Assembly: GCA_023957215.1 (NCBI GenBank)
Contig: JAMLHH010000003.1
Coordinates: 337-64,336 of the forward strand
Reading direction: 5' to 3'
Source of the DNA: Chitinophagales bacterium
Lineage (GTDB): Bacteria > Bacteroidota > Bacteroidia > Chitinophagales > JADIYW01
Length of the DNA stretch: 64,000 nucleotides
Shown: positions 12,615 to 13,526 of the stretch, piece after piece
How the letters are laid out: the number at the start of each line of letters is the position of its first letter
Position numbering within the stretch: position 1 is the stretch's first letter
Program-made: the position numbers and the translations under genes
Notes under the pieces: generated by a model
The model's input: only the letters and a program-made list of their open reading frames with translations
What the model was told of the DNA's origin: nothing
Database searches by the model: none

Positions 12615-13526
12615 TTAATATTCCCACAAATCATGTTCAAAGTTGAATATTTTTTCCTTGATTCTTTCGGACTCATATAGTTGATCAATCGGGTTCTCCC
12701 AAATATCTTTAACTCTCTCGTCTCTCACGTTATCTTCTTTATAGATGACGGAACTAAAAAGTCTCTGTGTAAAAATATCATCCCAAGTTAATCTCACCCC
12801 ATCAGGAAATGGATTAAACGCTTCAGTTTTCACTAACTTAGCTCTTAAATCAGGCATAAATACCCAAAATAAAGCTTTGACACCTCTCAAAACACCTGTC
12901 TCACTATAATCATCCATTACCGGAGCTATACCCAAGATACGTACCTGCATAGTTGAAGTACGTTTATTAAAATACCAAACTTCTTATTGTTTGTATAATT
13001 AAACTACAACTGTAGGTATCAAAATATCAGGATTGGCAGCACGCTATCGTTATTTTTTGGAAGTTAATTGAAGGGCATCTTCCGGATTAATCGGAGTCTT
13101 GAAATCATCATCATTAGGTGAAAAAACAGGAACGTCTCCCGATTTGACGGCTTCCAATAAGATGTCAATCAAAGGTTTCTTAGGATAAACAAAAGGTTGA
13201 TTCATCTTTTCTCTTGTATCTATCACTCTCCAAATCTCTTTTTTCCAAAACACATCAGCCTCTCTTATATAATCAGGTTGTAATTCAATTCTCTGGCCGG
13301 TCAAATCTTGCACCCACGGCATTGTTTGTAATTCAGTATTGATCGAATTATCCGTACCTGTATTATTATTAACAGGGACATTCTGATTCTTAGTATTAGC
13401 AGATGCCTGATTAGCAATTTGATCTGCATCTACTACATCCATTTCAGGCTGCTGAGCTCTCAAAACAGAATGTGAGAAACCAATTAATGAGCCTACAATT
13501 AAAGATTTATAAATCAACTTTTTCAT
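12615..13526 (-). pseudogene. gldN: Gliding motility/T9SS protein GldN (PorN homolog) interrupted by four in-frame stop codons
   Basis: The N-terminal ORF 13050-13526 (with signal peptide) and C-terminal ORF 12615-12950 are in the same frame. The stops are TAA 13050-13052, TAG 13044-13046, TAA 12999-13001 and TAA 12984-12986. Read-through gives ...LYKQ*EVWYFNKRTSTMQVRILGIAPV, which is GldN-like. The gene sits last in the gldKLMN order. Confidence 0.8.

Follow-up and report, generated by a model that had tools for sequence, protein, structure and literature searches.

Clustered damage in gldN and the probable recent loss of type IX secretion in a Chitinophagales lineage

The gldN locus

[quoted passage not shown] The gldN gene is located directly downstream of gldK-gldL-gldM, in an order that is identical in four related loci (L081, L083, L084 and L085), and the position of the porP/sprF-family gene is common to the same relatives. 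An uninterrupted open reading frame (ORF) of about 275-320 aa is expected of GldN/PorN proteins; here the frame contains four stop codons, TAA 13052-13050, TAG 13046-13044, TAA 13001-12999 and TAA 12986-12984, which span 69 nt. Since the frame is otherwise open over 303 codons and both alternative frames are closed there, these stops are not a chance occurrence. They leave two ORFs that share one common frame, a 158-aa ORF comprising a signal peptide, a variable linker and the first part of the GldN core, and a 111-aa C-terminal ORF. The signal-like character of the N terminus, MKKLIYKSLIVGSLIGFSHSVLRAQ, was recognized by inspection.

The identity of the family is well supported by profile searches. 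On read-through, the translated frame matches TIGR03523 with 157.8 bits (cut-off 85.9) over model positions 37-280 of 280, and PF19841 with 225.4 bits from end to end (positions 1-228 of 228). Taken alone, the N-terminal fragment scores 45.1 bits against TIGR03523, below the cut-off of 85.9, and covers positions 37-111, while the C-terminal fragment scores 89.7 bits over positions 167-280. A preliminary description of this DNA had reported the four stops, which minus-strand translation places at the same positions. It had also recognized gldN as the last gene of gldKLMN, in agreement with the family profiles and with the gldM, gldL and gldK genes upstream, and had seen the division into a fragment with a signal peptide and a C-terminal fragment devoid of an export signal, as found here.

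Table 1. Features of the T9SS-linked region and of T9SS cargo genes in the window
Feature	Position	Strand	Description
gldN pseudogene (GldN/PorN family)	12615..13526	-	303 codons on read-through, plus terminator
gldN N-terminal ORF	13050..13526	-	158 aa, ATG start, ends at the first TAA
gldN N core	13334-13062	-	273 nt; 77.7% nt identity to L081, no gaps
gldN patch 1	13041..13061	-	21 nt, 7 codons TCC AAA AAA TAA CGA TAG CGT; 33% nt identity to L081, 12-nt gap
gldN island AANPDILIPTVV between the patches	13005..13040	-	36 nt, 12 codons, intact; 77.8% nt identity to L081, no gaps
gldN patch 2	12984..13004	-	21 nt, 7 codons GTT TAA TTA TAC AAA CAA TAA; 43% nt identity to L081, 24-nt gap
gldN C-terminal half	12615..12983	-	369 nt, frame open from 12983, first ATG at 12950; 80.5% nt identity to L081, no gaps
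gldN C-terminal ORF	12615..12950	-	111 aa, without signal peptide
gldM	13549..15180	-	Intact, 543 aa; TIGR03517 304 bits; all four Pfam GldM domains
gldL	15215..15868	-	Intact, 217 aa; TIGR03513 123.5 bits
gldK pseudogene	15924..17213	-	One in-frame TAA, 16517-16515; two genes upstream of gldN
porP/sprF-family gene	17312..18313	-	Intact, 333 aa; TIGR03519 152 bits
Esterase A pseudogene	8074..9382	-	BD-FAE domain and T9SS type A sorting domain
Esterase B pseudogene	6752..8038	-	Tandem paralog of A; T9SS sorting domain, TIGR04183 43.5 bits
PHB-depolymerase-like esterase	4285..5433	-	Intact, 382 aa; T9SS sorting domain, TIGR04183 42 bits
S8 peptidase	32586..37844	+	Intact, 1752 aa; T9SS sorting domain, TIGR04183 28.6 bits (cut-off 23)

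Two altered patches in the gldN core

A protein search returned 1810 GldN homologues, of which the closest 23 (59-75% identity) were aligned with the window sequence (alignment A1). All 23 are uninterrupted plain ORFs of 275-314 aa (one partial), with no split gldN in any of them, and no 111- or 158-aa GldN fragment occurs among the homologues listed. Searches by tblastn against 80 related loci gave a single uninterrupted gldN alignment per locus, which establishes that the two halves in the window are collinear with the orthologs. Twelve codons (4 + 8), corresponding to 36 nt, are present in all 23 closest homologues and absent from the window gene.

The losses fall in two patches of seven codons each. 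Patch 1 replaces 11 codons of the relatives, G-[AS]-T-T-D-T-[IV]-Y-V-P-D (33 nt of conserved sequence), and holds the stops TAA 13052-13050 and TAG 13046-13044. Patch 2 replaces 15 codons, T-[QK]-[ED]-F-N-[FY]-[ED]-[DN]-V-K-Q-Y-R-[IVL]-K (45 nt, conserved), and holds the stops TAA 13001-12999 and TAA 12986-12984. Thus, where the relatives read ...LT-G[AS]TTDT[IV]YVPD-AANPDILIPTVV-T[QK][ED]FN[FY][ED][DN]VKQYR[IVL]K-EVWYF..., the window reads ...LT-SKK(stop)R(stop)R-AANPDILIPTVV-V(stop)LYKQ(stop)-EVWYF.... The amino acids of the island between the patches are identical to those of the homologue P0001. At the nucleotide level, identity with L081, the closest ortholog, drops to about chance level in the patches, compared with 78-80% elsewhere in the conserved core. 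All changes are contained within about 110 nt, and the other 800 nt of the gene are clean.

These comparisons modify the preliminary description in several respects. Its statement that gldN carries no frameshift holds for the flanks and fails for the stop-bearing segment, where every close homologue has an additional 36 nt. Its view that the sequence had changed by substitution only does not survive the loss of 12 codons relative to the 23 homologues, nor the low identity of the patches (33% and 43%). The conserved motif cited in its favour (EVWYFNK...RILGIAP) is encoded entirely after the final stop and is therefore uninformative about the stop region.

Conserved residues and strands affected in GldN

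In the 46-sequence family alignment (A3), residues R190, K192, E193, W195 and F197 (P0001 numbering) are invariant. The window gene retains E193, W195 and F197 and has lost R190 and K192, the latter being aligned with a TAA. The patches were placed on an AlphaFold model of P0001 (mean pLDDT 76.6), of which residues 91-311 match solved GldN/PorN chains. Patch 1 corresponds to the beta-strand 158-164 of the model, and patch 2 to a loop and the first half of the strand 186-198. No functional GldN ring subunit is to be expected from these fragments, since the larger part of the fold is missing from the 158-aa fragment and the 111-aa fragment lacks a signal peptide; production of a functional GldN from the split gene thus appears very unlikely.

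Lesions in gldK and in T9SS cargo genes

Damage in the cluster is not restricted to gldN. In gldK, a stop codon replaces a conserved tyrosine, HPAYDDYPVVG being changed to HPANDD(stop)PVVG, and divides a single frame into ORFs of 232 aa (16515..17213) and 177 aa (15924..16457) that match TIGR03525 at positions 3-218 and 242-407, respectively. Intact gldK orthologs encode 427-431 aa with 87% identity to the window GldK, and the two pieces are currently entered as separate proteins in NCBI nr. The intact GldM is 89.7% identical to its L081 ortholog, and the length of GldL is within the 199-221 aa seen in relatives.

Four genes in the window encode proteins with a T9SS sorting domain, and two of these four are broken. 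In esterase A, three-frame translation locates a frameshift between about 8667 and 8645, with the Pfam domain BD-FAE on 8642..9382 and Por_Secre_tail on 8074..8517 (TIGR04183, 41 bits). Esterase B, likewise of the BD-FAE type, is interrupted twice, by a frameshift near 7774-7755 and by a TAA in frame (7398-7396). Both pieces of A align to B, and each paralog runs uninterrupted across the lesions of the other. The intact PHB-depolymerase-like esterase is unrelated to both. The preliminary description had overlooked the gldK stop and the two broken cargo genes, which together turn what would be a single odd gene into a decaying system.

Intact genes and other features of the window

About 41 other genes of the window appear intact, with full-length domain coverage, including rpoB, rpoC, uvrB and tuf as well as the scanned ribosomal protein genes and the glyoxylate-shunt genes. 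Broken genes therefore number 4 of 9 among those linked to the T9SS and 0 of about 41 among the others, a distribution with a hypergeometric probability of about 5e-4 under a T9SS-linked grouping that is post hoc, having been defined after the lesions were seen. The five lesion sites share a 10.5-kb segment (6.7-17.2 kb) of the 64-kb window, interleaved with the intact uvrB, gldM, gldL and an MBL-fold gene. The 6-17 kb region presents no compositional anomaly.

Several features lie outside this region. The segment 39613-52569 on the minus strand is a standard conserved cluster with tRNA-Thr/Tyr/Gly/Thr, tuf, tRNA-Trp, nusG, rplK/A/J/L, rpoB and rpoC, of which the scanned genes are intact, and it serves as an internal control for assembly quality. 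A gene-poor stretch (27531-29014) surrounds a 213-aa IS630-family transposase fragment (28085-28726, plus strand) with an HTH_33 domain and a truncated DDE_3 domain, which is probably the remnant of an insertion sequence; beyond it, at 29014-29400, is an isolated PIN-domain gene. A SAM riboswitch (RF00162, 32273-32373, minus strand, 69 bits) is located upstream of a 379-aa gene (30984-32123) whose sole Pfam match is OsmC-like. This is not a typical name for a SAM-regulated gene, and a fusion of this gene to an unrecognized methionine-pathway domain is possible. Finally, a 1121-aa ORF at 57547-60912 (minus strand) matches no Pfam family and resembles known domains only in a stretch weakly similar to the TolB propeller (36.5 bits); the ORF represents a large uncharacterized protein.

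Selection and age of the lesions

The closest locus, L081, is an ENA metagenome contig with the same synteny and with intact gldK (431 aa), gldL, gldM and gldN (314 aa). The four genes are likewise intact, in the same synteny, in L083, L084 and L085. Protein identities between the window and L081 amount to 90% for GldM, 87% for GldK, 86% for GldL and 74% for GldN. Pairwise dN between the same two loci is 0.11 for the N core of gldN and 0.073 for its C half. The corresponding dS has reached saturation (1.6-3.3), which precludes a lineage-specific dN/dS, and constraint on gldN was judged from pairwise dN and from relative-rate comparison. The low dN places both halves under strong purifying selection during nearly all of the time since the separation from L081. 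Given the saturation of dS, the low dN reflects the history of the gene before the lesion and not selection acting on a split gene.

In GldK, GldL and GldM, the window and L081 are equidistant from three outgroups, which reveals no acceleration. GldN is slightly more distant from the outgroups in the window than in L081, a figure to which the patches and the variable N terminus contribute. Divergence outside the lesions is not in excess, and with saturated dS only long decay would be visible in this way. Neither further lesions nor excess divergence are seen in gldL, gldM or porP, or in gldK and gldN outside their damaged sites, so inactivation is likely to be recent. A very recent inactivation had been among the options of the preliminary description and is the one best supported by the absence of excess divergence and of any split gldN in relatives; the low dN of each half (0.11 and 0.07) attests to strong past purifying selection, with dS saturated.

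The allele itself is known from one source. The proteins of the window are singletons among about 15 billion sequences and come from one NCBI contig of 129.5 kb. Exact protein look-ups and exact DNA scans of genome and metagenome contigs identified no second assembly with the same allele. For GldM, L081 is the closest relative (90%), the best metagenome relative being 74% identical and the best relative in genome collections 53%.

Possible origin of the gldN patches

The +1 frame inside the patches reads KNNDSV and FNYTNNK, to be compared with STTDTV and FNYDNVK in the family. A free nucleotide alignment of patch 2 proposes deletions of 8, 7 and 9 nt, and a frameshift-aware alignment favours a +1 path for one patch with one query only. 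In the control, shuffled patches align equally well (P about 0.35). Compensated frameshifts within the patches were set aside on these grounds, the multi-gap alignment being no better than random, and they could at most have occurred in principle. Templated mutation from a local donor was likewise rejected: the window contains no copy of either patch with up to three mismatches, short k-mer matches do not exceed chance, and repeats nearby are weak.

If inactivation is recent, the dense cluster of changes looks like the product of one or a few complex events and not of gradual erosion. A complex event is invoked because simple neutral decay does not predict damage packed into about 110 nt. It is possible, though doubtful, that a single complex and localized mutational event, such as error-prone repair, caused the gldN damage in a Chitinophagales population caught midway in the loss of its T9SS. 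Such an event would have rewritten two 21-nt stretches separated by 36 nt and deleted 12 nt from one and 24 nt from the other, both lengths divisible by three. It would represent natural clustered mutagenesis that disables a secretion system, perhaps under phage pressure, in a free-living population.

Alternative explanations

The gldN patches, and possibly the other lesions at 6.7-17.2 kb, might be assembly or polishing errors or a strain composite, in which case the true gldN would be intact. The allele is known from a single contig with no independent assembly, so the lesions lack independent confirmation. Patches of 21 nt at chance identity inside otherwise normal sequence would be an unusual natural pattern, and the confinement of every lesion to 10.5 kb of the 64-kb window would fit a locally poor assembly. 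On the other hand, about 41 other genes are free of frameshifts and stops, among them ORFs of 3.8-5.3 kb, which indicates that the assembly is accurate overall. The genes uvrB, gldM, gldL and the MBL-fold gene between the lesions are intact. Errors would not single out functionally linked genes (4 of 9 as against 0 of about 41). The lesions take such different forms as single-base nonsense, frameshift and replacement with deletion, and the composition is unremarkable. An artefact is therefore considered unlikely.

Explanations that accept the sequence and preserve a product fare less well. In a tolerated or functional split, both GldN pieces would be made and would support secretion together or with a paralog elsewhere. 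Both halves are indeed long open frames in a genome of 36% GC, with strong past constraint, and the gldN of Flavobacterium johnsoniae has a partly redundant paralog, gldO, so that the loss of one copy can be tolerable. Against this stand the lack of a split in any relative (none shares it among the 23 closest homologues), the C-terminal piece devoid of a signal peptide, the disappearance of 12 codons, among them those for R190 and K192 (both invariant) and for portions of two core strands, the low dN that predates the lesion in view of saturated dS, and the independent truncation of gldK. A functional split is accordingly highly improbable.

Recoding would require readthrough, stop reassignment, bypass or multiple programmed frameshifts to restore a full-length GldN. 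It could draw on the flanks being in one frame and on a +1 switch inside each patch that avoids all stops and yields the faint resemblance of KNNDSV and FNYTNNK to STTDTV and FNYDNVK; this resemblance is no better than that of shuffled sequence. The presence of four stops, both TAA and TAG, within 69 nt argues against it. It is further opposed by the normal termination of genes in the window at these codons (7 TAA and 2 TAG among 11 long genes) and by the terminal TAA of gldN itself, which falls precisely where the family model ends. The five tRNAs of the window are standard, no Rfam element is found at the stop region, and inspection gives no matching pair of take-off and landing codons that would resume in the GAA GTT TGG frame. 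Stop reassignment in particular is countered by the absence of in-frame TAA or TAG in the roughly 41 other genes and of a suppressor tRNA in the window. All relatives have plain ORFs in place of this arrangement, and any read-through GldN would still be deprived of 12 conserved residues. The probability of recoding is close to negligible. The preliminary description had kept both a tolerated split and local readthrough among its options; neither gained support.

Probable recent loss of the type IX secretion system

The gldN gene is probably a genuine recent pseudogene, one symptom of a Chitinophagales lineage or population that is losing type IX secretion together with any gliding that relies on it. 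In the window, two short patches in the middle of gldN have been replaced or shortened (net -36 nt), which brings in four stops, affects two core beta-strands and deletes two invariant residues, and gldK is truncated independently by a nonsense mutation. In the absence of GldN and with a truncated GldK, the PorK-PorN ring (periplasmic/outer-membrane) could not assemble and secretion would be switched off, leaving the cargo genes free to decay. A candidate driver is phage pressure on T9SS and gliding functions, best documented in other Bacteroidota. The integrity of two cargo genes, gldL, gldM and porP counts against a loss of the system. The explanation rests on 64 kb of genome, and a second gldN/gldO-like copy or gldKLMN set may exist elsewhere in it.

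If the lesions are real, the organism would have no PorK/PorN ring, no T9SS secretion and no T9SS-dependent gliding, which matters for the ecology deduced from its genome. It would also provide an environmental case beside the laboratory evidence that T9SS and gliding genes are readily lost. In terms of annotation, gldN, gldK and the two esterase genes should be treated as pseudogenes and not as separate short proteins. The case of gldN has no bearing on questions of genetic code or recoding.

Comparison with known systems

The closest system is GldN/PorN itself, a T9SS ring subunit represented by TIGR03523 and PF19841 and by the structures 7PVH, 9MYJ, 9MZU and 9OTS. The read-through product matches the family models end to end and, as in relatives, the gene closes a porP-gldK-gldL-gldM-gldN cluster; it differs in a frame interrupted four times and in the loss of 12 conserved codons with R190 and K192.

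Loss of such genes is documented in flavobacteria. In Flavobacterium psychrophilum, phage selects mutations in gldK, gldL, gldM and sprA, mostly nonsense or frameshift, that abolish gliding and secretion (PMC9804748), and a related report concerns Flavobacterium columnare under phage pressure (bioRxiv 10.1101/2020.10.02.323337). The window resembles such mutants in its gldK nonsense mutation and its disrupted gldN. The flavobacterial mutants are laboratory-selected single mutations that are often reversible, whereas the window belongs to an environmental or draft Chitinophagales genome and shows several independent lesions, cargo genes included, with phage as a candidate cause.

As in ordinary bacterial pseudogenes, gldN is disrupted where its nearest orthologs are intact, and functionally linked genes decay together. 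The gene can be counted among ordinary pseudogenes, from a familiar protein family and within a decaying system, and is unusual only in damage that is tightly clustered and frame-preserving: unlike in other pseudogenes, it is concentrated in two 21-nt patches 36 nt apart, with losses of 12 and 24 nt, in a gene that is otherwise pristine.
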